Of a stretch of DNA of 32,000 bases, positions 12,208-29,949 are shown piece by piece (the first letter of the stretch is position 1; every line of letters starts with the position of its first letter). The stretch lies in contig NC_002939.5 of the NCBI RefSeq assembly GCF_000007985.2, positions 2,730,001-2,762,000 on the forward strand, in the 5' to 3' direction. Under the pieces are notes generated by a model, which saw only the letters and a list, made by a program, of their open reading frames with translations, was not told where the DNA came from and did not search any database. Origin of the DNA: Geobacter sulfurreducens PCA. GTDB taxonomy: Bacteria; Desulfobacterota; Desulfuromonadia; Geobacterales; Geobacteraceae. The position numbers were made by a program, and so were the translations under genes.

Positions 12208-12211
12208 GGAA

Positions 12212-13493: not shown

Positions 13494-13504
13494 GGGAGCT
13501 CCTT

Positions 13505-15487
13505 TTACTGTTTTCCTGTCACGTGGCAATCAGAGCACGAACGCGAAGCGAAGGGTGCGTGCACCATCTTCTTGAAGAACTTCGGGTCCTTGGAACTGTG
13601 CGGATCGTGGCAGTTCATGCAGTTCATCACCGTGGCGGAGATCCCCAGGTGAGCGTCCGCAAACGGCTTACGGTCGTAGGAGTGGCACTGGCCGCACAGG
13701 GCCACGAGCTGTTCGGTAAGCAGCGACGGCTGGCCCGAATTGTGGGGCTTGTGGCAGGTCTGGCAGTCCTGCTCCGCAGGCGTGTGGATCTTCTCGCTGG
13801 CGAACCGCTCCTTGGTCCCCTTGTGGCAGGACACGCAGAGGTCGGTCCCCTGGGCCAGCAGCAGCTTGTTGAGCTTCGCCTTGTGGGGGCTGTGGCACTT
13901 GGTGCAGTCCCCTCCCCGGAACGGGGCATGGGAGCTCTTGGAGGCCTTGTCGCCCTGCTCCAGCGACTTGTGGCAGCCGAAGCACAGCTTCGCCTCGTTG
14001 TCCACGATCATCCCCCGCACGTTGCTGCCGTGGGAATCGTGGCAGGTGAGGCACTGGCCCCCGTTGAACGGCATGTGACTGGAGCCGCCCGACTCGGCCT
14101 TCATCAGGTCCGCGTGGCAGGGTGCGCAGAGCTGCGGCACGGTATTCTTGAGCAGGTTCTTTTCGGCCGAGCCGTGGGCGCCGTGGCACGACACGCAGTC
14201 GGCGTTCATGACCGGCTTGTGGGTGAAGGTCTTCTTGAATTTGGTCTCGGCATCGGTGTGGCAGCCGTAGCAGACCGTATCGGCCCGCTCCTTGAGCATG
14301 GCGGCGAAGTTGGTGCCGTGGGGATCATGGCAGGAGCTGCAGTCGCCGCCGTTGAAGGGCACGTGCTGAACCTTGTTCTTGAGCCCTTCCTTGGTCTTGG
14401 CATGGCACGAGTAGCAGAGATCCGAGCCGGCCAGGGTGAGCAGTCCCTTGTTGGGGGCGGCATGGGGCCGGTGGCAGGAGAGGCATCCCTTCTTGTCGCC
14501 GGTGATGACCTTGTGGGGCACGGCAACGCGCAGGTTCTTGTCCTGGTGGCACCCGAAGCAGAGGTTGTTGCCGTCGGCCGTGAGCAGCTTCGCGAACTCG
14601 GAGGTGTGGGCCCGGTGACAGGAGAGGCAGTCGCCGCTCTTGAACGGCGCGTGCTCGGCCACGCCGCCGGTCCCCTTGAGCATGGCCGCATCGTGGCACT
14701 GGTAGCAGAGTTCGCTCCCCTTCTGGGTCACTCCGAAGGGCTCGGGCCCGCCGGCCGGATTGTGGCAGCCGTCACAGCCGCCCGTGGCAACGGGGTTATG
14801 GGCGCTGGAGCGGAGGAGCTTCTTGCCGGTGGCCGAGTGGGGGTTGTGGCAGATAGTGCAGCGCTTGCTTTCCACCGGATAGCCGCCGTGGGCCTTCTTG
14901 AAGCTGCCGGCGCCGCTGTCGTGGCAGCCGAGACAGATCTTCGGCTCCTTTTCCCTGAGGAGGTTGTCCTCGGTGGAGCTATGGGCCGCGTGGCAGGAGC
15001 CGCAGCCTTTTTTCGTGATGGCGCCGTGGATGGTCCCCTTCTCGTAGTCCTCCTTCTTGTGGCAGCCGTAGCAGGACTCCGGCCCGTCACCCTTCAACAG
15101 GTGCGGGGTGGTGGAGGCGTGGGGGTTGTGGCAGAGGGTACATTTCCCCTGGCGCAGGGGTGTGTGCACCTTGGGCTTGTCCAGGCCGATCTTGTCCCGG
15201 CCGTGACAGTCGAAGCAGAGCTGGTTGCCGTCCTTCTTGAGCAGCAGCTTCGGCACGATGCCGTGGCGCAGGTGACAGTCCTCGCACTTCTGCTCCTTGA
15301 CGATGGTGTGGATGTACTTCATGGAGAGGTACTTGTCATTGAACTTGCCATGACAGTCGACGCATTCCTTGCGGGCGAACTTCTTCGCCGCCAGCGCCGG
15401 GCTCTCCGACAGGTGAAGAATGAGCCCCCCCACCAGGAGGGTCATCACCAGGAATAAGAGTTGTCGTTGTGCATGCACGGTGCGCAT
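13505..15487 (-). CDS. multihaem cytochrome c with 26 CXXCH motifs
   Basis: 660 aa from ATG 15487 with GGAGGAG SD and an N-terminal hydrophobic signal/anchor. I counted 26 CXXCH, arranged as a repeating two-haem unit (LCxxCH ... VHxP..G.CxxCH(N/D)PH ... LL). Confidence 0.9.
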   Translation of the reverse strand: MRTVHAQRQLLFLVMTLLVGGLILHLSESPALAAKKFARKECVDCHGKFNDKYLSMKYIHTIVKEQKCEDCHLRHGIVPKLLLKKDGNQLCFDCHGRDKIGLDKPKVHTPLRQGKCTLCHNPHASTTPHLLKGDGPESCYGCHKKEDYEKGTIHGAITKKGCGSCHAAHSSTEDNLLREKEPKICLGCHDSGAGSFKKAHGGYPVESKRCTICHNPHSATGKKLLRSSAHNPVATGGCDGCHNPAGGPEPFGVTQKGSELCYQCHDAAMLKGTGGVAEHAPFKSGDCLSCHRAHTSEFAKLLTADGNNLCFGCHQDKNLRVAVPHKVITGDKKGCLSCHRPHAAPNKGLLTLAGSDLCYSCHAKTKEGLKNKVQHVPFNGGDCSSCHDPHGTNFAAMLKERADTVCYGCHTDAETKFKKTFTHKPVMNADCVSCHGAHGSAEKNLLKNTVPQLCAPCHADLMKAESGGSSHMPFNGGQCLTCHDSHGSNVRGMIVDNEAKLCFGCHKSLEQGDKASKSSHAPFRGGDCTKCHSPHKAKLNKLLLAQGTDLCVSCHKGTKERFASEKIHTPAEQDCQTCHKPHNSGQPSLLTEQLVALCGQCHSYDRKPFADAHLGISATVMNCMNCHDPHSSKDPKFFKKMVHAPFASRSCSDCHVTGKQ

Positions 15488-15502
15488 AGCTCCTCCAGTC
15501 CG

Positions 15503-17218
15503 TTAAAACTCGGCGAAAATCTTGACGTCGGACGCCTTCCTCAGCTTGTCCGCCCACTCCACGACCAGCTTGTTGAGCTGTTCCGACTGGACGTTCTTCC
15601 TGATTGTGGCCTCGACCTCGGGGAAGGACTGTACCTGTTCGGGGATCACGTTGCGGACCAGGATGACATAGGTGAAGCCGTTGGGGTCCGAATAGACCCG
15701 GTATTCACCGGTCTGGGCCCCGGTGATGACCTTGTTCAGCCCCTCGGGAAGGGTCTTGAGGGTGACCGGCACGTCCTCGAACTGGAGGACCCCGGCGGCC
15801 TTGGCATCCACGTGGCCCTCGGCGTTCTCCTTGAACCATTTGAAATCCATCCCCTGGCGCAGCTTTTCCGCGGCGGACTGGGCCGCGTTCTGGTCATTGA
15901 AGGCAATGCCGTCCAGCACCACCATGATCGGGTAGGAGTACTCGGACTTGTGCGCCTCGTAGTAGGCCTTCAGCTCATCCTCGGTCACCTTCACGTCCGG
16001 GCGGATGACCTTTTCCACGAAATGCCCGAAGATCACGGATTCCTGGTAGTCGGTGACCTTGTCCAGGTATTCCTTTTTCTTGTCGAAGCCCTTGTCGCGG
16101 CCCTCTTTCTCAATGGCCCGGGTGGCCAGGATCTCGAACAGCAGGGAGTCCTTGGCCTTGTTGACCTTCTTCTGGTCAATGGCCATGTCCACCCCGTGGT
16201 AGAACTTCATCCGGATCGCTTCGGCCAGGTCGGCCACGGTCACCGGCTTCTCCCCCTTGATGGTGGCCAGGGGACGCTTGTCCTCCAGGAACTTGAGGAA
16301 CCCTGCCTTGTCCTTCTCGAAATCCAGCGACTTGATCAGTTTCTTGTCCTGCTTGAAATACTTCTCGATCAGCTCGGTCCGGAATTTTTCAAGGGCCTTG
16401 AAGCGGGCCGCGGTGAGCGTTTCCTTCTCCGCCCTGTCCTTCAGTTTCGGATCGTCGGAATGCTTCACGGCATCGAGCCGGAACAGCATGGCCCCCTTCT
16501 GCATGTCGATCACCGGGCCCACGGCGCCGGGCTTCAGCGAATCGATGATCTTCACGATATCGGGGTGGATGTGCTCGTATTTCAGCTTCTCATTCTGCTT
16601 GGCCTCGGCGCGCTTCTCCTTGACCTCCTCGGCCACCAGCGCGTCAAAGGACGTGCCTTTGTCCAGGGCCTTGCGGGCCTTCTTGGCATCTTCCTCGTTC
16701 TTGAACGTGAGGGTGGAGAAGGTCCACTCCACGTTGAGCTGGCCGTAGCGCTTCTCCACCTCCTTGGGGTCGGGCCGGATGTCCTTCACATGATCCTTGA
16801 GCACCAGCTCGCGCAGGAGCTTGCGGGAGAAGGTATCGATCATCTCCTTGGGCTGCTCCTGCTGGTCCAGGCCGATGTTGCGCCCTTCCTGGATGATGAG
16901 CTTGGAGGTGATGATCCGGTTGAGGATATCCGTAAAGTTCCGGCGGGGGGCCTGCTTTCCTTCCGTCATCCCCTCGTGTACCGTTTCAAGGGAGGCGTTC
17001 AGGTCGTTGACGGTGATCGGCTCGTCGTTGACCGTTGCCACGGGGAATTCGGCAAACAGCGGCGAAAACAGGGGCACCTTCACCCTGATCGTCATCACGT
17101 CGGCCGGAGCCGGCGAGGCTTCCACGTTTTCCGGCTTTGCCGGCGAATCGGCAAAGCCCGCCACCGGGGCACCCGCGGCAATGCATGCTACCATCAGCGT
17201 AACCAAAGACTTCTTCAT
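15503..17218 (-). CDS. periplasmic SurA-like chaperone / PpiC (parvulin)-type peptidyl-prolyl isomerase domain protein
   Basis: 571 aa from ATG 17218 (AAGGGGAG SD) with signal peptide MKKSLVTLMVACIAAGAPVAGFA. It has a long Lys/Glu-rich helical chaperone-like region and a C-terminal parvulin-like segment (VVLDGIAF...GMDFKWF...GFTYVILV), in which the usual His residues seem absent by eye. Confidence 0.7.
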   Translation of the reverse strand: MKKSLVTLMVACIAAGAPVAGFADSPAKPENVEASPAPADVMTIRVKVPLFSPLFAEFPVATVNDEPITVNDLNASLETVHEGMTEGKQAPRRNFTDILNRIITSKLIIQEGRNIGLDQQEQPKEMIDTFSRKLLRELVLKDHVKDIRPDPKEVEKRYGQLNVEWTFSTLTFKNEEDAKKARKALDKGTSFDALVAEEVKEKRAEAKQNEKLKYEHIHPDIVKIIDSLKPGAVGPVIDMQKGAMLFRLDAVKHSDDPKLKDRAEKETLTAARFKALEKFRTELIEKYFKQDKKLIKSLDFEKDKAGFLKFLEDKRPLATIKGEKPVTVADLAEAIRMKFYHGVDMAIDQKKVNKAKDSLLFEILATRAIEKEGRDKGFDKKKEYLDKVTDYQESVIFGHFVEKVIRPDVKVTEDELKAYYEAHKSEYSYPIMVVLDGIAFNDQNAAQSAAEKLRQGMDFKWFKENAEGHVDAKAAGVLQFEDVPVTLKTLPEGLNKVITGAQTGEYRVYSDPNGFTYVILVRNVIPEQVQSFPEVEATIRKNVQSEQLNKLVVEWADKLRKASDVKIFAEF

Positions 17219-17249
17219 CAGACTCCCCTTTCTCTGCATTCAGGTTGCG

Positions 17250-17278
17250 GCCGCACCGGGCACTCCGCTCCGGGCGGC
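17250..17278 (-). other. intercistronic GC-rich hairpin without a U-tract
   Basis: GCCGCCCGG pairs with CCGG(T)GCGGC as a 9-bp stem with one bulge, in the only sizeable gap (89 nt) inside the 11-gene block. It may be an RNA processing or stability element. Confidence 0.25.
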
Positions 17279-17307
17279 CATCAGGACGTTTGACACAACG
17301 AATTCCG

Positions 17308-18486
17308 TTACGGGCTCATCAATATCCGTTCGAGTTCTTCCTGGCTCATCCGCGGCGGCGTCAGCTTCACTTCCCTGGTCTCCTCCACCATGACCCCCAG
17401 GAAGGCCCTCATCATCCCCTCGGTCAGGACGTTGGCGGTGGACACCCTCCGCCAGTCATAGAAGAACACACCGTCATCCCCGGTGTTCCTGCTCTTGGTG
17501 GCCCAGATCACCATTTTGCTGGAGCGTTCCAGCAGTTGCAGCGAAAAATCGACCCGGGGCTTGCCGGAGCCGCTGGGCATGTCCCGGTACTCGAAGACCC
17601 GGCCCGTGAGGATGAAATCGGTTTCCAGGTTGTTGGCCAGCAGGTCCGCCGCCGGCAGGGAGATGCCGTTCTGCATGATGATCCTCATGGCCAGCATCTT
17701 GCCCCGGATCACCCCCGGCTCGAGCACCGCGAACGCCTTGGACGACACCAGCTGCTTCACCACGTGCAGCACCATGATCTCCCCGGCATTGGTGCGATCG
17801 CTCTCGTTGAAGAACGGCAGGACCGCCACGCTGTAGCGGCGCCTGGGGTCAAGCTCCATGAAGCGGTACGCTTCCTTGGGCTTGAACCGCCGCTCCCAGC
17901 CGGGGGCAGGAGCCTCCTCGCCCGCCAGCTTGTGCAGCAGCGACCCGGACAGGCGGTCGAGGGCCCGGTTCCACAGGACCGACGGGTCTTCCACGATGCC
18001 GATCCCCAGGATTCCCGGGGCATCGTCACCGGCCATCCCCACGCTGTCCATCCAGAGGATTTCCGGCTTTTCCCCCGTGGCCACCAGGCGGGCAACCAGG
18101 GACACCTTGGGGGGGCTCACGTCGCTGTAGTACTCCAGACTCATGATGAGGACCGCGTCCACCCCGGCCTTGGCCTTGAACGCGGCCGACGTCTCCAGAT
18201 CGAGGCCGCCGGTGTAGCGGATGCGCTGCTGCTCCATGAACCGCCGCAGATCGGCCTCGTCCATGATGCGCACCCCGTTCTGCCGGAGCCGCTCCGTGAA
18301 CCCGCTGCGCATGGCCGCCAGGGGCGCGTCGGCGCCGCTCAGGTCTTCCATGGGGTAGACCGCCACCAGCGGACCGGACGGCCGGCCGGCCTCCACGGAA
18401 AGACGCGCGCATCCCGCCGCCAGGAGGAGCAGAACCAGCGGCAGCAGTGCGAGCAGTCTATTGGAACAGCTTCGAGATGAGATCAT
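17308..18486 (-). CDS. lipoprotein with two tandem LpoB/TolB-N/DUF799-like domains
   Basis: 392 aa with lipobox LLLAAGC. Two repeats of the pattern hVAVhP(M/F)..(L/N).S ... DAVL/DFIL..(S/G).hE.Y ... V.h.h.Lh ... (I/V)(L/I)W occur, at LVAVYPMEDLS... and SVAVLPFFNESD... Its start overlaps the upstream gene end by 29 nt. Confidence 0.7.
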   Translation of the reverse strand: MISSRSCSNRLLALLPLVLLLLAAGCARLSVEAGRPSGPLVAVYPMEDLSGADAPLAAMRSGFTERLRQNGVRIMDEADLRRFMEQQRIRYTGGLDLETSAAFKAKAGVDAVLIMSLEYYSDVSPPKVSLVARLVATGEKPEILWMDSVGMAGDDAPGILGIGIVEDPSVLWNRALDRLSGSLLHKLAGEEAPAPGWERRFKPKEAYRFMELDPRRRYSVAVLPFFNESDRTNAGEIMVLHVVKQLVSSKAFAVLEPGVIRGKMLAMRIIMQNGISLPAADLLANNLETDFILTGRVFEYRDMPSGSGKPRVDFSLQLLERSSKMVIWATKSRNTGDDGVFFYDWRRVSTANVLTEGMMRAFLGVMVEETREVKLTPPRMSQEELERILMSP

Positions 18487-19057
18487 CGACCGCTTTCTCA
18501 GTCACATCGTTGAGGGGCCTGCCGCCGCCGCCGAGAAGGCGGTCCGTGAACCCGATCCCCCCCTCCGTGGCCGATGCGGACCAGACGACCCTCCCGGTCT
18601 GGGCCTCCATCACCTGGAGGCTCAGGGAGATAACGTCGGCCATGGACGAGCCCGAGCGGACGTCGCCGTACTCCCGTACCATGCCCGTAATGACCGCGTC
18701 GGCCTTGATCATCTTGGCCAGCTTAACCACTTCCTCGGGGGTGGGGGCAGTGGGGTTCATGACGCCGGCCACCCCCGTCACCCGGCTGACCTCGCCCACG
18801 GGGATGACGTAGAGGGCCCCCGTGGCCAGCAGCTTGGTGTTGAACACGTCCCTGACCCGCTCCGCGGCCTGGGTGTCCTTGGACAGGTTGCCGAAGGGCA
18901 TCACCGCCACGCTCTGGATCGCCCCGAAGTCCATGTTGGGGTCCCGGAAATGCTCCACGTGGGAACAGCCCTGCATCAGCAGGAACGCAAAGAGGCCGAA
19001 GATTCCGCAGAATGCCCGCATCAGGGCGCCGGTGTGGGTGACGAATCGTGATCTCAT
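18458..19057 (-). CDS. lipoprotein, single LpoB/TolB-N/DUF799-like domain
   Basis: 199 aa from ATG 19057 (GGAGAGAGGG SD) with lipobox FLLMQGC. It shows SVAVMPFGNLSKD ... ADAVITGMVREYG ... VISLSLQVMEAQTGRVVWSAS. Confidence 0.7.
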   Translation of the reverse strand: MRSRFVTHTGALMRAFCGIFGLFAFLLMQGCSHVEHFRDPNMDFGAIQSVAVMPFGNLSKDTQAAERVRDVFNTKLLATGALYVIPVGEVSRVTGVAGVMNPTAPTPEEVVKLAKMIKADAVITGMVREYGDVRSGSSMADVISLSLQVMEAQTGRVVWSASATEGGIGFTDRLLGGGGRPLNDVTEKAVDDLISKLFQ

Positions 19058-19079
19058 ATATGCCCTCTCTCCGTGGAAA

Positions 19080-21269
19080 TCAGAACGCGAATCTCAGGGT
19101 GCTGCTGAAGGTGCGCGACTCGGACGACTGGCTGACCGACGTGCTCTTCAGGTACAGATAGGACATATCCAGGTAGGAGCCCCCCCGGATGTTCCAGCGC
19201 ATACTCGGCACGATGGTCCGGTCCTTCTGGTTGGCAGATGAATTGTACGCCTCATTATAGGAAAAACTCAACTGCAGGGCGCCGTCCCGGAACGGAGACC
19301 AGGTTCCGCCGATGTTCCGGGTGGTGACCATGTCCTTGTTCTTTTCCATGATAACGCCGAAGGCCCCGAACAGGTAGACGGAGCGCAGCGGGTTGAAGGC
19401 CGCCGACAGGTCGCCGCGGTGGGTGAAGGTGGAGTTGTCGGGCAAGCCGCCGCCGGTCTGTTCGGTCATGTTGCCGGAATAGCTCGCGTTCACCGTCAGG
19501 GTCGAGTGGGGCAGCAGGGTGAGGCCGAAGGTGACGATGGTGGTATTGGTCTTCTGGCCCGACTCGGCGGTGGCCATGCTGTAGCCCCCGTTCAGGTTCA
19601 CGTCCACCCCTTGGTAGAGGGTGGCGCTGTTGTTGAGGAACAGCGAATTGGTGTCGCTTTTCCTCCCGTCGATCTCCTCGTTGCGGCCGCTGAAGACCAG
19701 GCTGTGGGTCAGCGTGGGGAGCGGGGTGGCCGTCAGCAGGGCACTGTAGATGTAGGAGACGCGGGCGCCCTGATTCTCCTTGGAGTCCTCCCGGGCGAAC
19801 CGGGCGCTGGTCGACAGGTACTGATTGAACCGGTGGCTCGCGGAAAGACCGTTCGACAGGATGTAGCGGGAGGTGGAGAAGAAGTCCGAGTCACTCCGGT
19901 CGTAGTAGTAGCTCAGCTCGTAGTTCAGGTTCGGATTTTCCAGGATCCTCACCCGCATGTTGGTGTCGAGCACGTGGGAGACCTGGCTCGTGGTGCGTCG
20001 CTGGACATCCTCGAACTGGACGAACCCTTCCAGCTCGGTCACCTGGATGTCGGTCAGGTTCGCGGTGGGGTTCACCAGCGAAACGGTGCCCAGGGGCAGG
20101 GGCGAGGTAACGACCTTCAGGTACCGGGAGGTGGCGCCGGAAAAGCCCAGCTCGTAGAACCAGCCGGTGCCCGCCTCGTTGCTCCTGAACGGTGCCGAGG
20201 GCAGGAGCTGCACCAGGGTCCAGTTCAGGTTGTCGCTGCTGGTGTAGATCGTCCAGGAGAACCGGTTCTCGATGTCCGAGGGGAGGTCCGTGTTGAGCCA
20301 GACGCGGATGCGGTTCACGGTCACCGCGCCGCCGAAGTCGAAGCCCAGGTTCCGGGGCCTGATGTCGCCCCCCACCGGCTGGATGCCGATGGTGACGTTG
20401 CTCCCCGTGTTCAGGTTCCCGTCCACCAGCGCCGGGTTGGCGGCCAGGGTGACCAGCAGGGGCGTATCGGTCAGGGCCGACAGGCCGGCCGTGGGAAAGA
20501 GCCGGAACAGGGCACTGTTGGTCTCCTGGGACGAGATGTTGTAGTTGGCGTAGAGGGTGACCCGGTCCTGCCAGAACTGGTCGTTGTAGGTCACCCGGCC
20601 GGTGTGGGTCAGGACCGTGGTGTTGTTCCGGGTCAGGTTGTCCGTGGCATCGGTATAGAGCCCCTGGTAGTTCAGCTCCACCTGCTCCACCGGCTTATAG
20701 CGGGAACCCAGGTTGTACGAATTGAGCACCACATCCTGGAACTGCCGGTCGGCATCGTAGGAATTGGTCCGCGTATAGAGGAACTCCAGGGAGGGGAGCC
20801 CCTCGGGTCTGAGGCTCAGCTTGGCGTTGTAGTTCTCGTGGATGATGTTGGACGAGGCGATCCCCTCGGTATCGGAAATCTCCTGGCGCCGGTTGTAGCC
20901 CAGTCCCGCGGAATAGAGGGGGGTGCCCAGGGTCAGGTCCAGGAAGGGGCTCACCTTCAGCAGGGTGGTATCGAGCTGGTTGTCGTTCAACTCCGCACGG
21001 GTCATGGTGTAGTCGACAGTGCCGCCGCCCGTGAAGCGCAGGGTCGGGTAGAGCATCCGGTCCAGGGACAGGTTGTAGCGCTGTAGGATCGAGCTGCTCT
21101 TGGTGGTCGTGGTCACATTGCCGGCATCCGTCGATTGGTTGTCGGAATTGACGTAGCTCAGCTCCAGGAACCCCCGCAGCCCCTCGGCCCCCGCCGTGGC
21201 CGGCAGCAGCGCGGCCGCGAGGGCCGCTGCTGCCATGAACCCGTGGAGTATCCGCATCCCGTTGCCCAC
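19080..21269 (-). CDS. large outer-membrane beta-barrel protein with an inserted discoidin (F5/8 type C)-like domain
   Basis: 729 aa from GTG 21269 (or ATG 21257) with signal peptide ...LLPATAGA. It has alternating-hydrophobicity strands rich in Y/N/S/T and the C-terminal OMP signature ...STLRFAF. Residues ~255-415 (nt 20025-20507) read LVDGNLNTGSNV...NLGFDFGGAVTVNRIRVW...WTIYTSSDNLNWTLV...SRYLKVV. Confidence 0.75.
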   Translation of the reverse strand: MGNGMRILHGFMAAAALAAALLPATAGAEGLRGFLELSYVNSDNQSTDAGNVTTTTKSSSILQRYNLSLDRMLYPTLRFTGGGTVDYTMTRAELNDNQLDTTLLKVSPFLDLTLGTPLYSAGLGYNRRQEISDTEGIASSNIIHENYNAKLSLRPEGLPSLEFLYTRTNSYDADRQFQDVVLNSYNLGSRYKPVEQVELNYQGLYTDATDNLTRNNTTVLTHTGRVTYNDQFWQDRVTLYANYNISSQETNSALFRLFPTAGLSALTDTPLLVTLAANPALVDGNLNTGSNVTIGIQPVGGDIRPRNLGFDFGGAVTVNRIRVWLNTDLPSDIENRFSWTIYTSSDNLNWTLVQLLPSAPFRSNEAGTGWFYELGFSGATSRYLKVVTSPLPLGTVSLVNPTANLTDIQVTELEGFVQFEDVQRRTTSQVSHVLDTNMRVRILENPNLNYELSYYYDRSDSDFFSTSRYILSNGLSASHRFNQYLSTSARFAREDSKENQGARVSYIYSALLTATPLPTLTHSLVFSGRNEEIDGRKSDTNSLFLNNSATLYQGVDVNLNGGYSMATAESGQKTNTTIVTFGLTLLPHSTLTVNASYSGNMTEQTGGGLPDNSTFTHRGDLSAAFNPLRSVYLFGAFGVIMEKNKDMVTTRNIGGTWSPFRDGALQLSFSYNEAYNSSANQKDRTIVPSMRWNIRGGSYLDMSYLYLKSTSVSQSSESRTFSSTLRFAF

Positions 21270-21272
21270 GCC

Positions 21273-22721
21273 TTACCTTTCGCCCGCCACGACCACGCGG
21301 CAGGGCTCGTCGCCCACGTCGATCTGCGCCACCTCCCGCTTGCCCACCAGGCCGATGAACTGCAGCCGCTTCACGCCGGAGAGGAGGGCCAGGAGATTGT
21401 TGTGCTCGCCGTCGATGGTCAGGTACGAGGGACTGCCGCCGCCGGAGATGAAATTGCCCGGCAGGAGCGAAAAGGGGTCGAAGACGTCGATCACGGTGTC
21501 GCTCCGCTTGGCGATGTAGATCTGGTCGGTGGACGTGTCGATCTTGATCGTCCGCGCCCCCATCCCCACGTAAACCCGCTTGGCGACGAGCCTGTTGGTA
21601 AGATCGATATCGACCAGGTAGGGGGAAAGCTCGTGGATGACCAGCAGCCGGTCGCCCCGCCGGTTCAGCTGCGCCCAGAGGGGCGAGGTTTCGGTAGGCA
21701 GCGTGGCGACCACGGCGCGCCGCGCGATGTCCACCACCGACACCGAGTTGGACAGGGTATTGAGCACGTAGGCCGTGCGTCCCAGCCGGTCCACGATCAC
21801 GGCGCCGGGCCTGCTCCCCACGATGACCCGGGCCAGTTCCGACTGGGAGGCCGGGTCCACGAAGCTGAGCGTATTGGAGCCGTTGTTGGCCACCAGCAGG
21901 GTCCTGCCGTCGGGGGTCAGGGCCAGTTCGACCGGGCCGTCGCCGATGCTGAGCCGGATGCGGGTCAGGGAATAGTCGGCCATCAGGTCGATGACCTCGA
22001 TGGCGTCGTCGCCCGACAGGGCCACGTAGGCCCGGCGCGCCGCCTGATCGAAGACGATGCCGGCCGGCGCCCGCCCGGTCTCGATGAACTCCGTGACCCG
22101 GGCCTCCCGCTTGTCGAACACCGCGATGGTGTTGGCCCCCTTGTTGGTGACGAAGCCCGTGAGTCCCCACAGGGGCCGCCCGGGGATCTCGGCCTTGAAG
22201 ACCGGCGAGAAGCTGAAGCGCTTGCTGACCGATGCATCTTCATCCAGCGTGAGGGAGATGAGGATACCCTTCTGGGGTTCCACCACGAAGGGGAAGTCGA
22301 TCATGACCGGCTTCTCGGGGGGCAGCAGGGCCATTCGCCCCTCGTCGGTCTTGGTGCCCGCCCCCGAGATCCGGAACGACAGGCCGCTGTAGCGCCCCCC
22401 CGGCAGGATCGCCGACCCCAGCATCCGCTGCCACTTCATGGTGGCGGGGCTCGCCTCGGTCAGCCTGAGGGAGAGGGGTATCTCCGTGCCGTCGCTCTTG
22501 ATCGCCGAAACCCCCGCCACGGTGAAGTCGAGCCGGCCGGCGTCCCGGGGGAAAGGCTCCAGGTAGAGGAACAGTTCCCCCTCGGCGAACAGCTGGGGCT
22601 TGGTGACGACAACGGGCGCGTGGCAGCCGCTGCACGTCAGCGCGGCGAGCACGGCGACCCACAGAACGATGAGGAGGGCAGCCCCGCGGGACGTCATGCG
22701 CTTGGGAGAATTCTCGTTCAT
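21273..22721 (-). CDS. YVTN-family beta-propeller protein with N-terminal signal/anchor and a single CXXCH
   Basis: 482 aa from ATG 22721 (GGGGAG SD; the track start 22769 would overlap the upstream gene). It has repeated ~40-aa units of the type GSRPGAVIVDRLGRTAYVLNTLSNSVSVVD. The N-terminus is ...LAALTCSGCHAPV. Confidence 0.75.
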   Translation of the reverse strand: MNENSPKRMTSRGAALLIVLWVAVLAALTCSGCHAPVVVTKPQLFAEGELFLYLEPFPRDAGRLDFTVAGVSAIKSDGTEIPLSLRLTEASPATMKWQRMLGSAILPGGRYSGLSFRISGAGTKTDEGRMALLPPEKPVMIDFPFVVEPQKGILISLTLDEDASVSKRFSFSPVFKAEIPGRPLWGLTGFVTNKGANTIAVFDKREARVTEFIETGRAPAGIVFDQAARRAYVALSGDDAIEVIDLMADYSLTRIRLSIGDGPVELALTPDGRTLLVANNGSNTLSFVDPASQSELARVIVGSRPGAVIVDRLGRTAYVLNTLSNSVSVVDIARRAVVATLPTETSPLWAQLNRRGDRLLVIHELSPYLVDIDLTNRLVAKRVYVGMGARTIKIDTSTDQIYIAKRSDTVIDVFDPFSLLPGNFISGGGSPSYLTIDGEHNNLLALLSGVKRLQFIGLVGKREVAQIDVGDEPCRVVVAGER

Positions 22722-22747
22722 GGTGCTCCCCGATCCCCTTGCCACGG

Positions 22748-24061
22748 TCATGGCACGGACGTGTGGCATTTGGTGCAGAGCGTCGACTGCTCCGGCGAGA
22801 AGAGCGACGCGGGCCGGTCATAGTACGCCCTGAGGGCTTCCATCTCGCTGCGCCCCTGGCCGTAGGGCTGGTAGGCCTCCCCTTCCTGTGAATACTTGCC
22901 GTTGTAGACCACGTAGGGCGTCTTGGTGTTCCAGCGGGTGGCGCTGTCCCAGCCGCCGGCGTGGGCCCGGTGGCAGGTGAGGCACATGACGCGGGGGGTG
23001 CCGTCCGCGGTGCTGGGCCCCTTGGTGGGGGTGGCCGTCACGATATTCCTCAGCAGGGTGTAGTTGTTGGTTCCCGCCTCGAAGGGGACCAGCGACAGCC
23101 AGGAGGTGGCCTCCACGCCGGACAGGTCCCCGGTCTTGATGTACCGGTTGTAGTAATCCACCATGGCGCCGCCCAGGGGGGCCTCGGTGCCGGCCGGGTG
23201 CACCAGCCCTCCCCCGCTGCCGTCCCGGTGGATGTTCGGGTGACAGTTCCGGCACCACTCGGACATCCCCTGGCCGTAGGCCACGCGGGTCGCGGTGGTG
23301 CTTTCGCTCCGGTTGTAGTCGGCCGGGGCCACCGCCGCCGGGGGTCCGTTGATGAAGGAAAAGGCCGGTCCCAGCGACTTGGGGTAATAGCCGTTCCCCC
23401 CCAGGAGCCGGTAGGCGCCCACGGCCATGGCGGCATCGGGCTCGACGCCGGTGGCGTAGCTCCCCGAGCCCCGGATCGGCTTGCCCGTGACCGCAATGGA
23501 GCCGTCCTGGTCGCGGCGGTAGCGGCCGTGGGGGTCGTGGCAGGCGACGCAGGACAGGCCCGCCGCCGGATAGCTGCCGCCGGGGGCCGTCAGGTGGAGG
23601 GCATCCTGGAGATAGCCGTAGTCCCCCGCCACCACGTTATGGCCGTGCCGGTCCCCCTCGCTGCTCGAAAGCGTCGAGCCAAAGGCCGGAATCCAGGTGT
23701 AGGATTTCCTGAGCCAGCCGAAATCGCCGCCGGGCCCCAGCTGCTTGGGCGGGACCCCGAACGGCATCTCGAACCCCGGCGTGCTCACGTGATAGGAGGT
23801 GGGGCCCACATCCCCCGCCTTCTCGTGACAGTTCAGGCAGGTGGAGCTGGAATCGCCCCCCTTCAGGAGATAGCGGTTGCCCATGCCCACGGGGCGGCCG
23901 TTGGTGGCCACCGCGAAGCCCCCTTCCGAGTTGTGCATGGTGTGACACCCTTCGCACTCGCCCGCGCCCCCTTCGTGAAAGGCGAGGGAACGGCCTGTGG
24001 TGGCCGGCAGCAGTACCGGCAGCACGACCAGGAGCGCAAGTATGGCCTTGGGTGCTTTCAC
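22748..24061 (-). CDS. OmcS-family hexahaem cytochrome c, third paralogue
   Basis: 437 aa. Its GTG start overlaps the upstream stop (GTGA, 24058-24061), with AAGGAA SD. Signal peptide ...GRSLA then FHEGGAGECEGCHTMHNS. Six CXXCH are collinear with OmcS/OmcT, and blocks GPGGDFGWLRKSYTW, VGAYRLLGG, TRVAYGQGMSEWC.NCH and CLTCHRAHAGGWDS are shared. Confidence 0.9.
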   Translation of the reverse strand: MKAPKAILALLVVLPVLLPATTGRSLAFHEGGAGECEGCHTMHNSEGGFAVATNGRPVGMGNRYLLKGGDSSSTCLNCHEKAGDVGPTSYHVSTPGFEMPFGVPPKQLGPGGDFGWLRKSYTWIPAFGSTLSSSEGDRHGHNVVAGDYGYLQDALHLTAPGGSYPAAGLSCVACHDPHGRYRRDQDGSIAVTGKPIRGSGSYATGVEPDAAMAVGAYRLLGGNGYYPKSLGPAFSFINGPPAAVAPADYNRSESTTATRVAYGQGMSEWCRNCHPNIHRDGSGGGLVHPAGTEAPLGGAMVDYYNRYIKTGDLSGVEATSWLSLVPFEAGTNNYTLLRNIVTATPTKGPSTADGTPRVMCLTCHRAHAGGWDSATRWNTKTPYVVYNGKYSQEGEAYQPYGQGRSEMEALRAYYDRPASLFSPEQSTLCTKCHTSVP

Positions 24062-27000
24062 GCCGATTCCTTAATGGGTCGACCCTGGGCCGGGTACGGG
24101 TTGCCGTGCTGCCGGCCCGTCATGGTCGCGATGATTTCCCGCATCCTGCGGACAAATTCCGCCTGGTCCGGAAGCGGCTTGCCGCGCGCCTCCGCCCCGC
24201 TCAACTCCTCGTTGTAGGCAAGCCGGACGGCCTCCATCACCTCGGCGGCCAGCCTTTTGGCCGAGCCATCCCGCCCCCTGCCGTTAATGTCCGCCTGGCC
24301 GATGATCACCCGCTCGTCGCTGTCCACGAAATCAACCACCGTCAGCTCACGGCTGACGCGGCTCATGACCGCGGCAACGTTCACGACGACCCGGCGACCA
24401 GATTCATCTAGCAAGGCCAATGCCAGTTGATCGAGCGGCAGCGGACTGCTCGCCATTTCCTCCAGGTATTCGCTGCGCAGGAACCGCCACGGAGCGAACG
24501 CGGCATAGTTCCCTTCCAGCTCGGAGACCAGGAGGCCGAACCGGGGCGAATCGTAGCGCCCGCCCAGGAAGATGGCCCGGGCCTCCAGGGCCAGGGCCGC
24601 GGCGCGGTCGAGCCTCATCCAGCGGTTCTCCCGGGCGAGCCGGTCCGCCGGCGGCACGCTGTCGTCCAGGTAGGCCAGGACGCTCTCCCGGTGCCGGGCA
24701 AGGGCGTTCACGTTGACCTCCGGCAGCGCTGACTTGCCGGTGGAACGGGGAACCGAGAATTCGAGATAGAGGTTGTCGTCAGTGTTAATTCTACCAGTAC
24801 GGCTGAACCTGTCAGCACCCGCCGTGCCCATGACGAAATAACTCAGCAGGTCGGTGGCGCTCCCCATCTGCACCCGTGCCAGATCGGCGGCCACGGCCGG
24901 CACGGCGATCCGGGCGGCCAGCTCGTCCTCGCTCAGGAGGATGGGGGCGTTGCTGCCGATGAGCATGGCATCCCCCTGGGTCATCCAGACCAGGACGTGG
25001 CGGTAAGCCTGCCGGAAGGTCCGGACCACCGACCTGAGATCGTCGGCGGAAAGATCGTAGAGGGGGAGCCACTGGCACATGATGCCGCCGGCCCGCAGGT
25101 GCTCTGCGGCCAGCTCGAAATACTCGCGGGTGTAGTTGTAGCCGGCGCCGCTCAGCCACGGGTGGATCGGATCGGCGGTGATCACGTCGTAGCGCTCGCC
25201 CGTGGTCGCCAGGTAGTTGCGGCCGTCGCTGAACGCCACCCGCAGCCGGCGGTCTCCGAGCACGCCGTGGTTGTAGGCGGCAAAGGAGCGCGTCACCCCC
25301 AGCACCTTCGGCTCCACCTCGGCCAGCGTCATCTCGGACACGCTCGGGTGGAGCGAAACAGCGCCAAGGGTAATCCCGCTGCCCGCGCCGATCACCAGCA
25401 CCTTGCGCGGGTTGCGGTGCAGAAGCATGGGCAGGTGACCCAGGGCGTACTGGTTCTGAAGGCTCTCATTGTGGTCGGACGCCTCGATCCGGCCGTTGCG
25501 CAGGAACGCCTGGTAGCCCCCCCTGATCCTGATGGAGCTGACGATGGACTGGATTCCCTCGGCGTAATAGAGGACATCGGTGTGCCGCTTGGCCTCGGCA
25601 ATCAGGTCCGGGGTCCTGAACACCTCCGGCTGGTTGGTGCGGTAGATGGCAAAGTACTTGGCGTCCCAGATCCGGGGCATGGTGCCGGCAACGGCCATGA
25701 CGCCGACCACAGCCAGCACGGTGCCCGCCGTGGCCAGCCTGCGGGGGGTGCCACGCAGCAGGCGCGCCAGGATCAACAGGCCGAAACCGGCGTTTACCGT
25801 GGCCAGCAGGTAGAGGGAGCGCTCGATGCCGAAGACCTGGATCAACACGAAACCGCTCACCACGGTGCCGAGAATGGCGCCGATCGTGTTGCAGGTCAGC
25901 ACCTCGCCCACGGCATGCCCCACCTTGCGCCGCCGGCAGGCGTCAAGGGTGCCGGCCAGGGGAAAGGCCACCCCCATGAAAAAGGCCGGGATGAACAGGT
26001 AGGAAAAGACCAGGGCGAAATTGGCGAACTGACGCGCGCGGAACAGGTCGGTGCTTTGCGACAGGAAGAGGTCCTGGAGGAAGAACACCCTGGTGGGAAG
26101 ATCGCGGATGAGAATGGTCACCAGCAGCGCGCTGAGGCCGATCACGATCTGCACCACGCCGAACCCGCCGATCAGCTTGGACACGGGACAGCCCCCCTCC
26201 TCGGGCGGCCGGAGGCGGCGGGCCCACAGGCCATAAGCCCCGCTGCCCGCGGCAATGCCGGTCAGGAAGGCCGCCAGCATCAAAGTGAAGCCGTACACAT
26301 TCGTGCCGATCACGATCCCCAGGACCCGGGTCCAGAGCACCTCGTACCCCAGGGCGCAGAAGCCGCTGACCCCGATCCCCCAGACCACGAGCCCGATGCG
26401 GGCCTTCTCCTCGGGCAGCGTAACAGCGGACAGGGGCGCCGGGGCCTCATCCTCGCCGGCCTCCAGGTACCGGGCCGCCGGGCCCTGGAGCGCGAAGCAG
26501 GCGATGCCCAGCAGCACGTTGACGGTGATCGCGCCGGCCATGGTGTTCGATACCCCGAACCGCCCCAACAGGTAGAATCCGGCCCCAAAACAGCCGGCCA
26601 CCGCGCCGAAGGTGTTCAGGGCGTAGAGGTAGGCCACCCCCCGCCCCACCGCGCGCCGGCCCCGGACCATGAACGCGGCCAGCACCGGCAGGGTCCCCCC
26701 CAGCAGGGTCGTGGGGACGATGAGCGCGATGGCGGCGAGCACGATCCGCAGGGTGAGCAAGGCCACGCGGGGCAGCTGGTGCGAATGCTCGGTCAGCGAC
26801 TCGAAGGAGTAGGCGGGCATCAGGGAATAGAGGTTGAGCAGGGCGATGAAGAGCAGGGCGAAAAAGGCGATGCCGATCTCAAGGGCACCGTAGAGGCGCA
26901 GCAGGTTCCGGGTGGTGCGCACGCGCCGGCCGAAGAGCCAGCTACCCAGGGCAAGCCCCCCCATGACCACGGCCAGCACCGTGGTCACCGCCAGGTGCGA

Positions 27001-27111
27001 GCCGCCGAACACGAGGCTGAGCTTTCTGACCCAGACGACCTCATAGACCAGGGCGGTGGCTCCCGAGAGGAAAAAGATCAGATAGATGAGAGCGGTAATG
27101 AGGATCGGCAT
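24058..27111 (-). CDS. polytopic membrane protein fused to a spermidine-synthase-like (SpeE-fold) domain and an unassigned C-terminal domain
   Basis: About 1017 aa from ATG 27111; the track starts at GTG 27165 and neither start has a good SD. About 480 aa of hydrophobic helices are followed by KVLVIGAGSGITLGAV ... YDVITADPIHPW ... GIMCQWLPLY (class-I SAM/dcSAM fold of SpeE type), then ~330 aa with no motif I recognise. Confidence 0.75.
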   Translation of the reverse strand: MPILITALIYLIFFLSGATALVYEVVWVRKLSLVFGGSHLAVTTVLAVVMGGLALGSWLFGRRVRTTRNLLRLYGALEIGIAFFALLFIALLNLYSLMPAYSFESLTEHSHQLPRVALLTLRIVLAAIALIVPTTLLGGTLPVLAAFMVRGRRAVGRGVAYLYALNTFGAVAGCFGAGFYLLGRFGVSNTMAGAITVNVLLGIACFALQGPAARYLEAGEDEAPAPLSAVTLPEEKARIGLVVWGIGVSGFCALGYEVLWTRVLGIVIGTNVYGFTLMLAAFLTGIAAGSGAYGLWARRLRPPEEGGCPVSKLIGGFGVVQIVIGLSALLVTILIRDLPTRVFFLQDLFLSQSTDLFRARQFANFALVFSYLFIPAFFMGVAFPLAGTLDACRRRKVGHAVGEVLTCNTIGAILGTVVSGFVLIQVFGIERSLYLLATVNAGFGLLILARLLRGTPRRLATAGTVLAVVGVMAVAGTMPRIWDAKYFAIYRTNQPEVFRTPDLIAEAKRHTDVLYYAEGIQSIVSSIRIRGGYQAFLRNGRIEASDHNESLQNQYALGHLPMLLHRNPRKVLVIGAGSGITLGAVSLHPSVSEMTLAEVEPKVLGVTRSFAAYNHGVLGDRRLRVAFSDGRNYLATTGERYDVITADPIHPWLSGAGYNYTREYFELAAEHLRAGGIMCQWLPLYDLSADDLRSVVRTFRQAYRHVLVWMTQGDAMLIGSNAPILLSEDELAARIAVPAVAADLARVQMGSATDLLSYFVMGTAGADRFSRTGRINTDDNLYLEFSVPRSTGKSALPEVNVNALARHRESVLAYLDDSVPPADRLARENRWMRLDRAAALALEARAIFLGGRYDSPRFGLLVSELEGNYAAFAPWRFLRSEYLEEMASSPLPLDQLALALLDESGRRVVVNVAAVMSRVSRELTVVDFVDSDERVIIGQADINGRGRDGSAKRLAAEVMEAVRLAYNEELSGAEARGKPLPDQAEFVRRMREIIATMTGRQHGNPYPAQGRPIKESA

Positions 27112-27187
27112 GGCACGCTCAAACCCCTCGACCGGACAGGCGCCGGAAACCGAGGGGTGTTTCACCGGATAGTGGATCGATTGCTGG

Positions 27188-27227
27188 AAAAAAGGCGGCC
27201 ACGACCGGCCGGAGGCCGGCCGTGACC
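27188..27227 (-). terminator. strong rho-independent terminator immediately after omcT
   Basis: The minus strand reads GGUCACGGCCGG-CCUCCGG-CCGGUCGUGGCC (12-14 bp stem including 2 G-U pairs), then GCC and U6. It starts 20 nt after the omcT stop. Confidence 0.8.
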
Positions 27228-27247
27228 AGAACTACATGACATATGAA

Positions 27248-28540
27248 TCAGTCTTTGGCATGACACTTGTTGCACAGGACCCGTTGATACGGGGCGAAGT
27301 TGGTGGGGGGTCTTCCATAGTACGCCTGCTGCGTTTCGGCAACGGTCCGTCCCTGGGCCTGGGCTGCGTTGGTGACCGGGTCGGGCCACACGGGGTTGCC
27401 TGACGCATCGGCCACGGTCATGAACTCGTTGCCGAGGCCGTACCGCATCATGCTGTCAAAGCCGGATGCGTGGGCGCGGTGGCAGGAGAGGCACATGACC
27501 CGGTCCGTGGAGATGGGGCCGGCAGTTGACGTGGTCTGGGCCTTGAGCGCGTTCAGGTCGTGGGTGTTGTCGCTCTGGAACGGCACCAGCGAGGTGAACG
27601 CCGTATCCACGGCGCCCGTCAGGTTGCCCGACTTCTTGTACGAGTTGTAGATCTGGGCCACGAAGGGGCCAAGGTTCTGATCGGCCGGGTGAACCAGGGT
27701 GCCGAAGGTGGTGTGCATCTGCCCGTGGCAGTTGGCGCACCAGAGGGACATGCTCCGGCCGTAGGCGACCCGCGTGTCGCTGGTGGCTTCCGAGCGGTTG
27801 TAGCTGTTGGGGGCCACGGCGTAGGGGGCCGCGAACATGAAGGCATCGCCGCCGCTCAGGGACTTGGGCTTGTACCCGGCACCGCCCAGGAGGCGATAAA
27901 CGCCGACGGCAGTGGTGGCATCGGGAACAGCGCCGTAGGAGCCGGAGCTCCTGATCGGCTTGCCGGTCTTGGCCTGGACGCCCAGTGAGGTGATCCGGTA
28001 GGTGCCGTGGGGGTCATGGCAGCTGATGCAGCTGAACTGGTTGGCCGGGAAGGGGGTGTTCATGCTCCCCGGGGCCGCGGTGATGGTGCTGTCGGCCACG
28101 TAGTTGTAATCGGCGGCCACGATGTTGTGGCCCTTGCGCTCGCCGTGGCTCCACTCCGTGGCGGCACCGGCGCGCGGCACCCAGCTGTAGGTCTTCTTGA
28201 GCCAGCCGAAATCGCCGCCCGGCGTGAGCTGGAGCGGCGGAGAGCCGGCGGGCATGTCGGCTTCTGCGGTACTGATGTGGTAGCTGCTGGGCCCCGTGTC
28301 ACCGGCATGCTGGTGACAGTTGAGGCACGACGAGCTCTGGTCCGTCCCCTGGAGCAGATAAGGGCCGGTGGTGAACTGGGCAGTAGCGTTGTTCATCTGC
28401 TGGCCGCCCAGGGAGTTGTGCATGGTGTGGCATCCCTCGCACTCTGCCACGCCACCTGAGTGGAAAGCCCATCCCGTGCCGGTTGCGCCGAGAACCAGGA
28501 GCGCCGCTGCTGTGACGGGAAGAGTCTTGAAGCGTTTCAT
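27248..28540 (-). CDS. omcT: hexahaem c-type cytochrome OmcT (OmcS paralogue)
   Basis: 430 aa with AGGAGG SD 6 nt upstream. Signal peptide ...GTGWA then FHSGGVAECEGCHTMHNS, and six CXXCH. It is roughly 88% identical to OmcS over the first ~95 mature residues by my hand count (84/95). Confidence 0.9.
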   Translation of the reverse strand: MKRFKTLPVTAAALLVLGATGTGWAFHSGGVAECEGCHTMHNSLGGQQMNNATAQFTTGPYLLQGTDQSSSCLNCHQHAGDTGPSSYHISTAEADMPAGSPPLQLTPGGDFGWLKKTYSWVPRAGAATEWSHGERKGHNIVAADYNYVADSTITAAPGSMNTPFPANQFSCISCHDPHGTYRITSLGVQAKTGKPIRSSGSYGAVPDATTAVGVYRLLGGAGYKPKSLSGGDAFMFAAPYAVAPNSYNRSEATSDTRVAYGRSMSLWCANCHGQMHTTFGTLVHPADQNLGPFVAQIYNSYKKSGNLTGAVDTAFTSLVPFQSDNTHDLNALKAQTTSTAGPISTDRVMCLSCHRAHASGFDSMMRYGLGNEFMTVADASGNPVWPDPVTNAAQAQGRTVAETQQAYYGRPPTNFAPYQRVLCNKCHAKD

Positions 28541-28650: not shown

Positions 28651-29949
28651 TTAGTCCTTGGCGTGGCACTTGTTGCAGAGAGCGCGCTGGTAAGGAGCAA
28701 ACTTGTCAGCAGTACGGCCATAGTAGGCAGCGGTCATCTCGTTGACCGAACGGCCCTGGAGGGACGAGGTATTGGGGTCCGTACCATAGATCGAGTTGCC
28801 GGAAGCATCGGCGATGGTCGTGAACTCGTATGCCAGGTTGAAGCGGGTCATGCTGTCGAAGCCCGAAGCGTGAGCGCGGTGGCAGGAGAGGCAGTTCACG
28901 TTGCTGGTGGCGTCGGCGCCGGTCAGCGCGGTGTCGTCGATCTTGGCGTGACCCTTGAGCACGGTGTAGTCGGCAGTGCCTTCCTCGAACGGAGCAAGGG
29001 ACAGGTAGGCGGAAGCCTGGGTACCGGTCAGGTCGCCGGACTTCTTGTAGGAGTTGTACAGACCGGCGATGGTAGCACCGAACTTGGCGCCGTTGCCGGC
29101 CGGGTGACGCAGGTTGGTCGGGTACGCGCTGTTGTGGATGTCGGTGTGGCAGTTGGCGCACCACTCGGACATGCCCTGGCCGTAGGCAACGCGGGTCTGA
29201 GTCGTAGCTTCCGTCCGGTTGTAGGTGGACGGAGCAACGGCGGCCGGTACCTGGTTGGCGAAGGCATAGGAACCGCTCAGGGACTTGGGCTGGTAGCCGG
29301 TGCCGCCCAGGATGCGGTATGCACCAACGGCGCCCCACGCGGTGGGATCGTTGCTGTTCTGGTAGGAACCGCTGTTCTTGATGGGGAGACCGGTGGTGGC
29401 GATGCTGCCGTCAACAAAACGACGATACTTCCCGTGGGGATCGTGGCAGCTGGAGCAGTGAAGCTGGTTGGCCGGATAGGTACCGCCCGGGGCCGTGGTC
29501 AGGGTGGTGTCGGCAACATAGTTGTAGTCGCCGGCAACGATGTTGTGGCCTTTGCGCTCGCCTTCGCTCGTGTTGAGACCACGAACGTTCCAGGTGTAGG
29601 TCTTCTTCACCCAGCCGAAGTCGCCGCCCGGGGTCATCTGGAGCGGAGCGGTACCGGCAGGCATATCAGCTTCAGCGGTGGAGATGTGGTAGCTGGAAGG
29701 ACCGGTGTCACCGGCGTGCTGGTGGCAGTTCAGACAGGACGAGCTCTGGGTGGCGCCCTGGAGCAGCATGGGGCCGGTGGTGAACTGGGCAGTGGCGCTG
29801 TTCATGACTGCGCCGCCCAGCGAGTTGTGCATCGTGTGGCACCCTTCGCACTCGGCAACGCCGCCGGAGTGGAAAGCGAACGCCGCGGGGGCGCTCATGA
29901 GAAGTGCTGCTGCTGCCACGGAAAGACTTACTTTCATCCCCTTTTTCAT
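28651..29949 (-). CDS. omcS: hexahaem c-type cytochrome OmcS (nanowire-forming subunit)
   Basis: 432 aa from ATG 29949 (GGAGG 5 nt upstream; the track ORF extends a further 50 codons upstream). Signal peptide MKKGMKVSLSVAAAALLMSAPAAFA then FHSGGVAECEGCHTMHNSLGGAVMNSATAQ..., and six CXXCH. I recognise the sequence from memory as G. sulfurreducens OmcS. Confidence 0.95.
   Translation of the reverse strand: MKKGMKVSLSVAAAALLMSAPAAFAFHSGGVAECEGCHTMHNSLGGAVMNSATAQFTTGPMLLQGATQSSSCLNCHQHAGDTGPSSYHISTAEADMPAGTAPLQMTPGGDFGWVKKTYTWNVRGLNTSEGERKGHNIVAGDYNYVADTTLTTAPGGTYPANQLHCSSCHDPHGKYRRFVDGSIATTGLPIKNSGSYQNSNDPTAWGAVGAYRILGGTGYQPKSLSGSYAFANQVPAAVAPSTYNRTEATTQTRVAYGQGMSEWCANCHTDIHNSAYPTNLRHPAGNGAKFGATIAGLYNSYKKSGDLTGTQASAYLSLAPFEEGTADYTVLKGHAKIDDTALTGADATSNVNCLSCHRAHASGFDSMTRFNLAYEFTTIADASGNSIYGTDPNTSSLQGRSVNEMTAAYYGRTADKFAPYQRALCNKCHAKD

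Follow-up and report, generated by a model that had tools for sequence, protein, structure and literature searches.

The omcS region of Geobacter sulfurreducens encodes a third hexahaem cytochrome besides OmcS and OmcT, and this raises the question of whether the third protein could also be built into a filament and, if so, in what role. We analysed the region within a stretch of 32,000 nucleotides of the G. sulfurreducens PCA genome (NCBI RefSeq assembly GCF_000007985.2, contig NC_002939.5, positions 2,730,001 to 2,762,000 of the forward strand), which is called the window below and whose first letter is position 1; features lie on its minus strand unless stated otherwise. The gene in question, oscC (GSU2501), is the coding sequence at 22748..24061 and encodes a 437-residue precursor of an OmcS-family hexahaem c-type cytochrome. 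The name follows PMC13194489 and mBio 2026 (preprint 10.1101/2025.11.06.686851), which assign GSU2501 to the osc ("omcS companion") operon described by Shen et al. 2025. The window was recognised as the omcS region by its open reading frame (ORF) at 28651-29949, residues 26-432 of which are identical to the OmcS chain of 6EF8/6NEF at 407 of 407 positions. A phmmer search of the OscC ORF against the PDB returned OmcS (6EF8/6NEF) at E 3e-133, with OscC residues 28-434 aligned to residues 1-405 of 6EF8, so the similarity to OmcS extends over the full length. Our sequence analysis shows that OscC is an OmcS-family hexahaem and a true OmcS paralogue with an intact ligand set and His16, the histidine that joins OmcS subunits. 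It is rather probable that OscC can also polymerise through the same head-to-tail bond from His16 to haem 5.

A sequence-only reading of the window had proposed that the mature chains of the three paralogues begin with a common pattern, and that all three carry six collinear CXXCH motifs and a histidine three residues after the first of them. Both observations hold. Mature OscC begins with FHEGGAGECEGCHTMHN (23930..23980), and mature OmcS and OmcT both begin with FHSGGVAECEGCHTMHN; each protein has exactly six CXXCH motifs in identical order and the histidine after the first one (His16). Since the phmmer match to OmcS is so strong, the shared pattern reflects homology and not chance. The mature N-terminus of OscC was set by homology to the observed mature chain of OmcS, which starts at the homologous Phe (6EF8), and not by a signal-peptide predictor. 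The Sec-type signal peptide placed in this way spans 27 residues (23981..24061), starts with GTG and ends in SLA before FH; it contains no Cys and hence is not a lipoprotein signal. The A/G-F-H junction at the cleavage site is kept in the OscC homologues.

The N-terminal motif holds His2, a putative distal ligand, the CXXCH of haem 1 (23942-23956) and His16, whose codon is CAC (23933..23935). The haem-2 motif follows (CLNCH, 23825..23839; invariant among homologues of the OscC clade), and then a His-Gly-His triplet formed by His112, Gly113 and His114 (23639..23647). His114 corresponds to His110 of OmcS, is invariant and is a probable distal ligand. The haem-3 motif (CVACH, 23537..23551) is followed by the invariant His151 (23528-23530), and the haem-4 motif (CRNCH, 23240..23254) is accompanied by the invariant His261 (23198-23200). 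The haem-5 site (CLTCH, 22970..22984), which would receive His16 of a neighbour, lies within the motif VMCLTCHRAHA that is kept across the OmcS family, and it is followed by the invariant His340 (22961-22963). The haem-6 motif is CTKCH (22763..22777). The CXXCH motifs start at mature positions 9, 48, 144, 243, 333 and 402 in OscC and at 9, 47, 140, 239, 328 and 400 in OmcS, and all six are invariant across the 114 sequences of the OscC clade.

In OmcS, polymerisation involves coordination of haem V of one monomer by His-16 of the preceding one (PMC13319180), and Filman 2019 (PMC6584659) reports that eleven axial ligands come from the own subunit and one comes from the neighbour, on haem 505. 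Both sources back the role that the sequence-only reading had given for His16, namely ligation of haem 5 of the adjacent subunit. Conservation of this ligand was checked, as that reading had suggested, and His16 and every other invariant haem ligand were found to be kept in OscC. Three sets of sequences were used. The OscC-clade alignment consisted of OscC and 113 full-length close homologues (114 sequences), the loci set contained 115 hexahaems from 80 genome loci, and the family set comprised 100 full-length representatives of clusters at 50% identity, from an exhaustive HMMER search that gave 645 clusters at E ≤ 1e-3.

Outside the CXXCH motifs, the histidines H2, H110, H147, H257 and H335 (OmcS numbering) were 100% conserved in the 100 cluster representatives, whereas H63, H108 and H247 were His in just 50-62% of clusters. 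The OscC counterparts of the five invariant residues, His2, His114, His151, His261 and His340, are all present. Five invariant distal histidines together with His16 match the published count of eleven own ligands plus one, and we infer from this count and from conservation, rather than from coordinates, that the five are distal ligands within the subunit. With these five and His16 assigned, haem 5 of OscC would be left without a sixth ligand from its own chain. No clade-specific extra ligand is evident, but OscC keeps three further near-invariant histidines (His64, His112 and His251) that may or may not lie near haem 5, and the open acceptor site is putative. His64 (97%) and His251 (98%) are conserved in the OscC clade and variable elsewhere, and with His112 they make up three near-invariant histidines that are presumably not ligands. 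His112 (23645-23647) is His in 114 of 114 clade sequences and in about 62% of family clusters, and the corresponding residue is Lys in G. sulfurreducens OmcS (Lys108) and OmcT. We considered whether His112 (HGH, versus KGH in OmcS and OmcT) is a gain specific to OscC and rejected this, because His is the common state of the family and Lys is derived in OmcS, OmcT and a few others.

His16 was present in all 114 sequences of the OscC clade and in about 95 of the 100 family representatives. The members of the OscC clade, which come from Geobacterales and Nitrospirota, are 54-66% identical to the window protein, except for one strain variant at 95%. In the loci set, 13 sequences that form a monophyletic clade carry T, S, A, R, K or P in place of His16, although their haem-5 motif and all five invariant distal histidines are retained. 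When this clade was examined for a compensating residue, no conserved new His or Met was found. Since the haem-5 motif is kept where His16 is lost, the residue seems to be dispensable for the fold and selectively kept in OscC. The retention in 114 of 114 sequences thus indicates selection rather than too little time for loss, and it is informative because a separate clade has lost the residue, though only moderately so, since His16 is the norm in the family.

In the proteins without His16, CHTMHN is changed to CHSKTN, CHTTPP, CHAGRP and similar variants. Their genes are found mostly just after oscK or stand alone (loci and positions L057:9785-11242, L058:9980-11335, L066:906-2261, L067:891-2255, L068:9926-11314, L073:9809-11314, L039:6999-8300, L060:7369-8805, L062:9869-11197, L065:9923-11296 and L072:9842-11206). 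Such proteins might receive a His16 from a neighbour but would have none to offer in turn, which makes them candidate chain terminators or monomers. Two Geobacteraceae osc clusters are preceded, on the opposite strand, by genes for shorter OmcS-family relatives of about 356 mature residues that have seven CXXCH motifs and lack His16 (L002:520-1755(-) and L047:428-1669(-)).

While the ligands are conserved, other parts of OscC differ from OmcS. In a three-way alignment, OmcS and OmcT are 64% identical, OmcS and OscC 52%, and OmcT and OscC 50-51%. Along mature OscC, identity to OmcS is 80% at residues 1-20, 15% at 21-40, 55-80% at 141-240, 35% at 301-320 and 20-35% at 341-380. The sequence-only reading had placed the divergence in the middle and C-terminal loops. 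The C-terminal part of that statement stands, since residues 301-320 and 341-380 are indeed low, but the middle of the protein (141-240) is well conserved and the lowest identity is found near the N-terminus, at 21-40. Some of the C-terminal difference arose in OmcS and OmcT and not in OscC: OscC keeps ancestral family states that both have lost, i.e., two tryptophans and "RWN", and OmcS and OmcT have gained an ADASGN insertion. At 11 positions the OscC clade has a residue, conserved to 90% or more, that neither OmcS nor OmcT shares. Nine of these positions are located at mature 344-382, between the haem-5 and haem-6 motifs, eight within residues 341-380 and the ninth, A382, just past them. 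This segment (mature 341-380, AGGWDSATRWNTKTPYVVYNGKYSQEGEAYQPYGQGRSEM, 22841..22960) is conserved in the OscC clade and contains a motif specific to it, YSQEG..YQPYGQGR.

Haem 6 of OmcS pairs with a cofactor of the next subunit (PMC13319180). Because haem 5 takes the foreign His16 and haem 6 pairs with the next subunit's cofactor, the segment between the two haems may plausibly form the acceptor face of the interface. On the donor side, residues 1-20 hardly differ among the three paralogues, although haem 1, His2 and His16 themselves also constrain this stretch. Filman 2019 lists no interface residues, and Portela 2024 does not discuss OmcS paralogues or His16.

A haem-free AlphaFold2 model of OscC, built with an alignment of 110 sequences, had a mean predicted local distance difference test score (pLDDT) of 77 and a predicted template modelling (TM) score of 0.78. 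A Foldseek search with this model gave 6ef8_A as the sole significant PDB match (E 1.4e-36, TM 0.77/0.83), so the predicted fold of OscC is that of OmcS. The pLDDT was low at residues 25-63, and the N-terminal 35 mature residues were poorly confident. We considered whether this marks an arm that depends on a neighbour and rejected the idea, because an OmcS control run with the same alignment was as poor there. Predictions of the haem-free monomer are uninformative on the N-terminal arm. The control had an overall pLDDT of 67, compared with 77 for OscC, and this difference probably reflects the dominance of the OscC clade in the shared alignment.

The gene order oscA-[at least one hexahaem]-oscD-E-F-G-H-I-J-K recurs in 80 loci from Geobacterales, Nitrospirota, Rokubacteria, Anaeromyxobacter, Desulfobulbaceae and others. 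A neighbour-joining tree (without bootstrap values) groups the OscC-like genes from Geobacterales and Nitrospirota in a single clade, every member of which directly precedes oscD. The hexahaem genes upstream of oscC are polyphyletic and vary in number. The identity between Geobacterales and Nitrospirota is 55.3% for the copies in the OscC position and 47.4% for the upstream copies, and the former was higher in 48 of 48 comparisons. At one locus (L009), the OscC-type gene is the sole multihaem ORF in the 10 kb upstream of oscD-J. This agrees with mBio 2026, in which a GSU2501 homologue is found in every genome with the eight-gene block and omcS is not found in every one. At the level of sequence, these comparisons show that OscC represents an ancient group of conserved orthologues whose genes stay with those of the machinery.

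Two loci of the set deserve a separate mention. In a Nitrospirota locus (L051:6775-16500), six tandem OmcS-family ORFs lie between oscA and oscD, two of them apparently identical in the tree, as a local expansion of subunit genes. Another contig (L001, JALHJW010000023.1) carries omcT, oscB, oscC and oscD at 93-98% identity to the window under the label of a "Desulfovibrio sp." metagenome-assembled genome, and it is probably a mis-binned G. sulfurreducens-like contig.

In the window itself, the minus-strand order is oscA, omcS, omcT, oscB, oscC and oscD to oscK, which fits the conserved order. The sequence-only reading had noted that the third paralogue sits inside the machinery block, apart from the omcS-omcT pair, and the structure of the operon bears this out. 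The gene omcS (GSU2504, 28651..29949), whose mature product is the filament subunit in 6EF8, is followed by omcT (GSU2503, 27248..28540), which has the ligand set of OmcS including His16. Between the omcT stop and the start of oscB (GSU2502, 24058..27165) there is a strong hairpin resembling an intrinsic terminator (27196..27228), with a 15-bp stem containing 11 G-C pairs and then TTTTTT. Because this hairpin separates omcS-omcT from oscB-oscC, it implies that omcS-omcT is a transcription unit of its own with limited read-through into the osc genes.

The TGA stop of oscB overlaps the GTG start of oscC (GTGA, 24061-24058), with AAGGA six bases upstream (24072-24068), and the stop of oscC overlaps an in-frame ATG of oscD (22751-22749) in ATGA (22751-22748). 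Since stop and start codons overlap, translational coupling of oscB, oscC and oscD is suggested. A promoter scan upstream of oscB and oscC gave nothing convincing. In published RNA sequencing data of a gsu1771 mutant, omcS and omcT changed by about -5 log2, whereas GSU2502 and GSU2501 changed by -1.96 and -1.69, respectively. This weaker response fits a separate, more weakly coupled machinery unit that contains oscC, next to a strongly regulated omcS-omcT pair.

Taken together, the best explanation is in our view that OscC is exported by Sec, is polymerisation-competent and serves in low amounts as an end subunit of an OmcS-type polymer, although our confidence in the whole of this explanation falls somewhat short of even. 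The exported protein would fold as an OmcS-type hexahaem with six haems. Its His16 would complete haem 5 of the next subunit, and its own haem 5 would take the His16 of a neighbour. In clusters where OscC is the sole hexahaem, OscC itself would be the filament subunit, whereas in G. sulfurreducens it would be made in machinery-like low amounts and join the polymer at one end. With a terminator closing the omcS/omcT unit, and with oscC translationally coupled to both of its neighbours, oscB and oscD, a low-amount end subunit is the most likely role. Taken on its own, the claim that OscC of G. sulfurreducens is a low-copy primer, base adaptor or cap and not bulk filament is possible but doubtful. 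Synteny and the structure of the operon would allow a cap, nucleator or anchor, but they would also allow an independent filament or a monomeric carrier, and a primer, anchor or cap role is at this point speculation.

Several observations weigh against this explanation. Filman 2019 describes purified filaments that consist solely of OmcS, and as of 2025-26 OmcS is the sole family member known to form a wire (mBio 2026). A PSORT-type prediction in PMC13194489 places OscC in the periplasm and OmcS and OmcT outside the cell. Since about 95% of the family's clusters have His16, it is the default, and its retention in OscC is no more than would be expected of an ordinary member. The assignment of the five own-chain ligands derives from conservation, and the term "low copy" derives from operon structure. 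The strong difference from OmcS in mature residues 341-380 could block mixed contacts between OmcS and OscC. In addition, the upstream copies of Nitrospirota are not clearly OmcS orthologues in the tree, which weakens the comparison of rates for OscC.

If OscC polymerises, it might alternatively form a homopolymeric nanowire of its own, an ancestral-type alternative made under unsampled conditions and outside OmcS filaments. This possibility was raised in mBio 2026, and OscC-only clusters do exist (L009 and the Clade 3A genomes of mBio 2026). The complete ligand set with His16 would allow it. In the segment between haem 5 and haem 6, OscC is nearer to the family consensus than OmcS and OmcT are (W...RWN is kept and the ADASGN insertion is absent), and the clade-specific motif in residues 341-380 could be a self-compatible interface. 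Strains deleted for omcS, however, have reportedly been imaged repeatedly and gave OmcE and OmcZ filaments. A delta-omcS strain was used in eLife 2022, and an OscC filament is unreported in the literature (mBio 2026). A gene behind a terminator and coupled to machinery genes would be unusual for a bulk structural subunit, and clusters with two copies always retain OscC beside another hexahaem, which suggests a non-redundant role. We therefore regard a separate OscC nanowire in G. sulfurreducens as unlikely, though worth keeping in view.

The opposite view is that OscC does not polymerise at all and works as a soluble or machinery-bound monomer that passes electrons to the filament base or to the 26-haem OscI, with His16 kept for an unrelated reason. 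The predicted periplasmic location (PMC13194489), the position of oscC among genes of periplasmic and outer-membrane machinery near the multihaem OscI and OscJ, its absence from observed filaments (mBio 2026) and the dissimilarity of residues 341-380 to OmcS would all suit such a carrier. It would, however, leave haem 5 without a sixth ligand and His16 without an obvious constraint, and yet His16 is found in 114 of 114 sequences while non-ligand histidines drift. The members without His16 form a different clade, so its loss is tolerated where the residue is not needed, and that clade has no conserved His or Met in compensation. These points make a monomeric carrier rather unlikely. OscC could also act as a periplasmic capping chaperone whose His16 arm fills the open haem-5 site of newly folded OmcS and keeps it from polymerising too early, before OmcS is handed on to the OscEFG channel. 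The N-terminus of OscC, the donor side, hardly differs from that of OmcS, the acceptor side of OscC diverges, and oscC is co-encoded and coupled with assembly factors in a cluster that already includes a dedicated peptidyl-prolyl isomerase (PPIase) chaperone, OscH. The idea is purely inferential, however, OscC-only clusters would offer nothing to cap, and Shen et al., as summarised in PMC13194489, give OscC no such role; we consider it very improbable.

OscC can be compared with known systems. OmcS (6EF8/6NEF) resembles OscC in the six collinear CXXCH motifs, the five invariant distal histidines, His16, the A|FH junction, the predicted fold and the gene cluster. It differs in loops 21-40 and 341-380, in the absence of the YSQEG..YQPYGQGR motif and in Lys108 at the place of His112; moreover, the omcT terminator separates oscC from omcS, oscC is coupled to both oscB and oscD, and of the two proteins OmcS alone has been observed in a filament. 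OmcT is likewise a family hexahaem with His16 and all ligands kept. Unlike OscC, which belongs to a separate, older clade, it shares the derived features of OmcS (K108, F/F and the ADASGN insertion) and is co-regulated with omcS. A further OmcS-paralogue hexahaem of G. sulfurreducens, OmcJ (GSU0701; mBio 2026), is encoded outside the window. OmcE filaments are alike in mechanism, since there, too, a haem is ligated by a histidine of the adjoining subunit (eLife 2022), but OmcE has four haems and is unrelated in sequence and fold.

The role proposed for OscC also has a parallel outside cytochromes. The minor (priming) pilins of type IV pili and type II secretion pseudopili are low-copy paralogues of the major subunit, are encoded with the machinery and share the polymerisation interface on one side. 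The likeness is one of proposed role only; there is no homology, and the polymerisation chemistry is entirely different. By this analogy, there might be a division of labour in which OscC is the low-copy initiator or base and the His16-less paralogues after oscK are the terminators. OscC would couple the polymer to the Osc machinery through its clade-specific haem-5-haem-6 surface and would plug, by the universal His16 arm, into bulk subunits of the OmcS/OmcT type, which are gained and lost over evolutionary time. In other Geobacterales, the paralogues after oscK that lack His16 would end the chain, because they can accept His16 but cannot donate it. We consider this division of labour decidedly unlikely as a whole.

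The rest of the window completes the cluster. Upstream of omcS lies oscA (30195-31178), which has an NHL repeat. The product of oscB is a membrane protein of 1035 residues with a spermidine-synthase-like domain, and oscD (GSU2500, 21273..22769) encodes a YncE-like beta-propeller. The remaining block from oscE to oscK (11302..21269, names from PMC13194489) consists of oscE (19080-21269), oscF for a GNA1162/LpoB-like lipoprotein (18458-19057), oscG (17308-18486), oscH for the PPIase (15503-17239), the multihaem genes oscI (13505-15487) and oscJ (12189-13529), and oscK with an NHL domain (11302-12207). In the summary of Shen et al. given by PMC13194489, folding is attributed to OscH, secretion to OscEFG and morphology to OscD. 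Apart from this cluster, an ORF of 485 amino acids at 3877-5334 on the plus strand contains a full TatD-type hydrolase domain and a radical-SAM domain, and may be an unusual fusion or two adjoining genes read together.

The gene and the name oscC, its place in the family and the idea of an uncharacterised nanowire or assembly-cluster member are already in the literature (mBio 2026; Shen et al. 2025 as summarised in PMC13194489). Our additions are small but concrete: the logic of five ligands plus one, the His16-less clade as a natural contrast, the haem 5-haem 6 motif of OscC, and the terminator and codon-overlap structure. A 2025 review calls nanowire secretion and anchoring "still speculative". 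If OscC is merely a monomeric carrier, the result is an ordinary one. Among the hexahaems, only OscC is always found with the assembly genes; since it also retains the polymerisation histidine and has natural relatives without His16, a primer, anchor or terminator model can be tested genetically. The species in which OscC is the only hexahaem would be the place to seek an ancestral OmcS-type wire.

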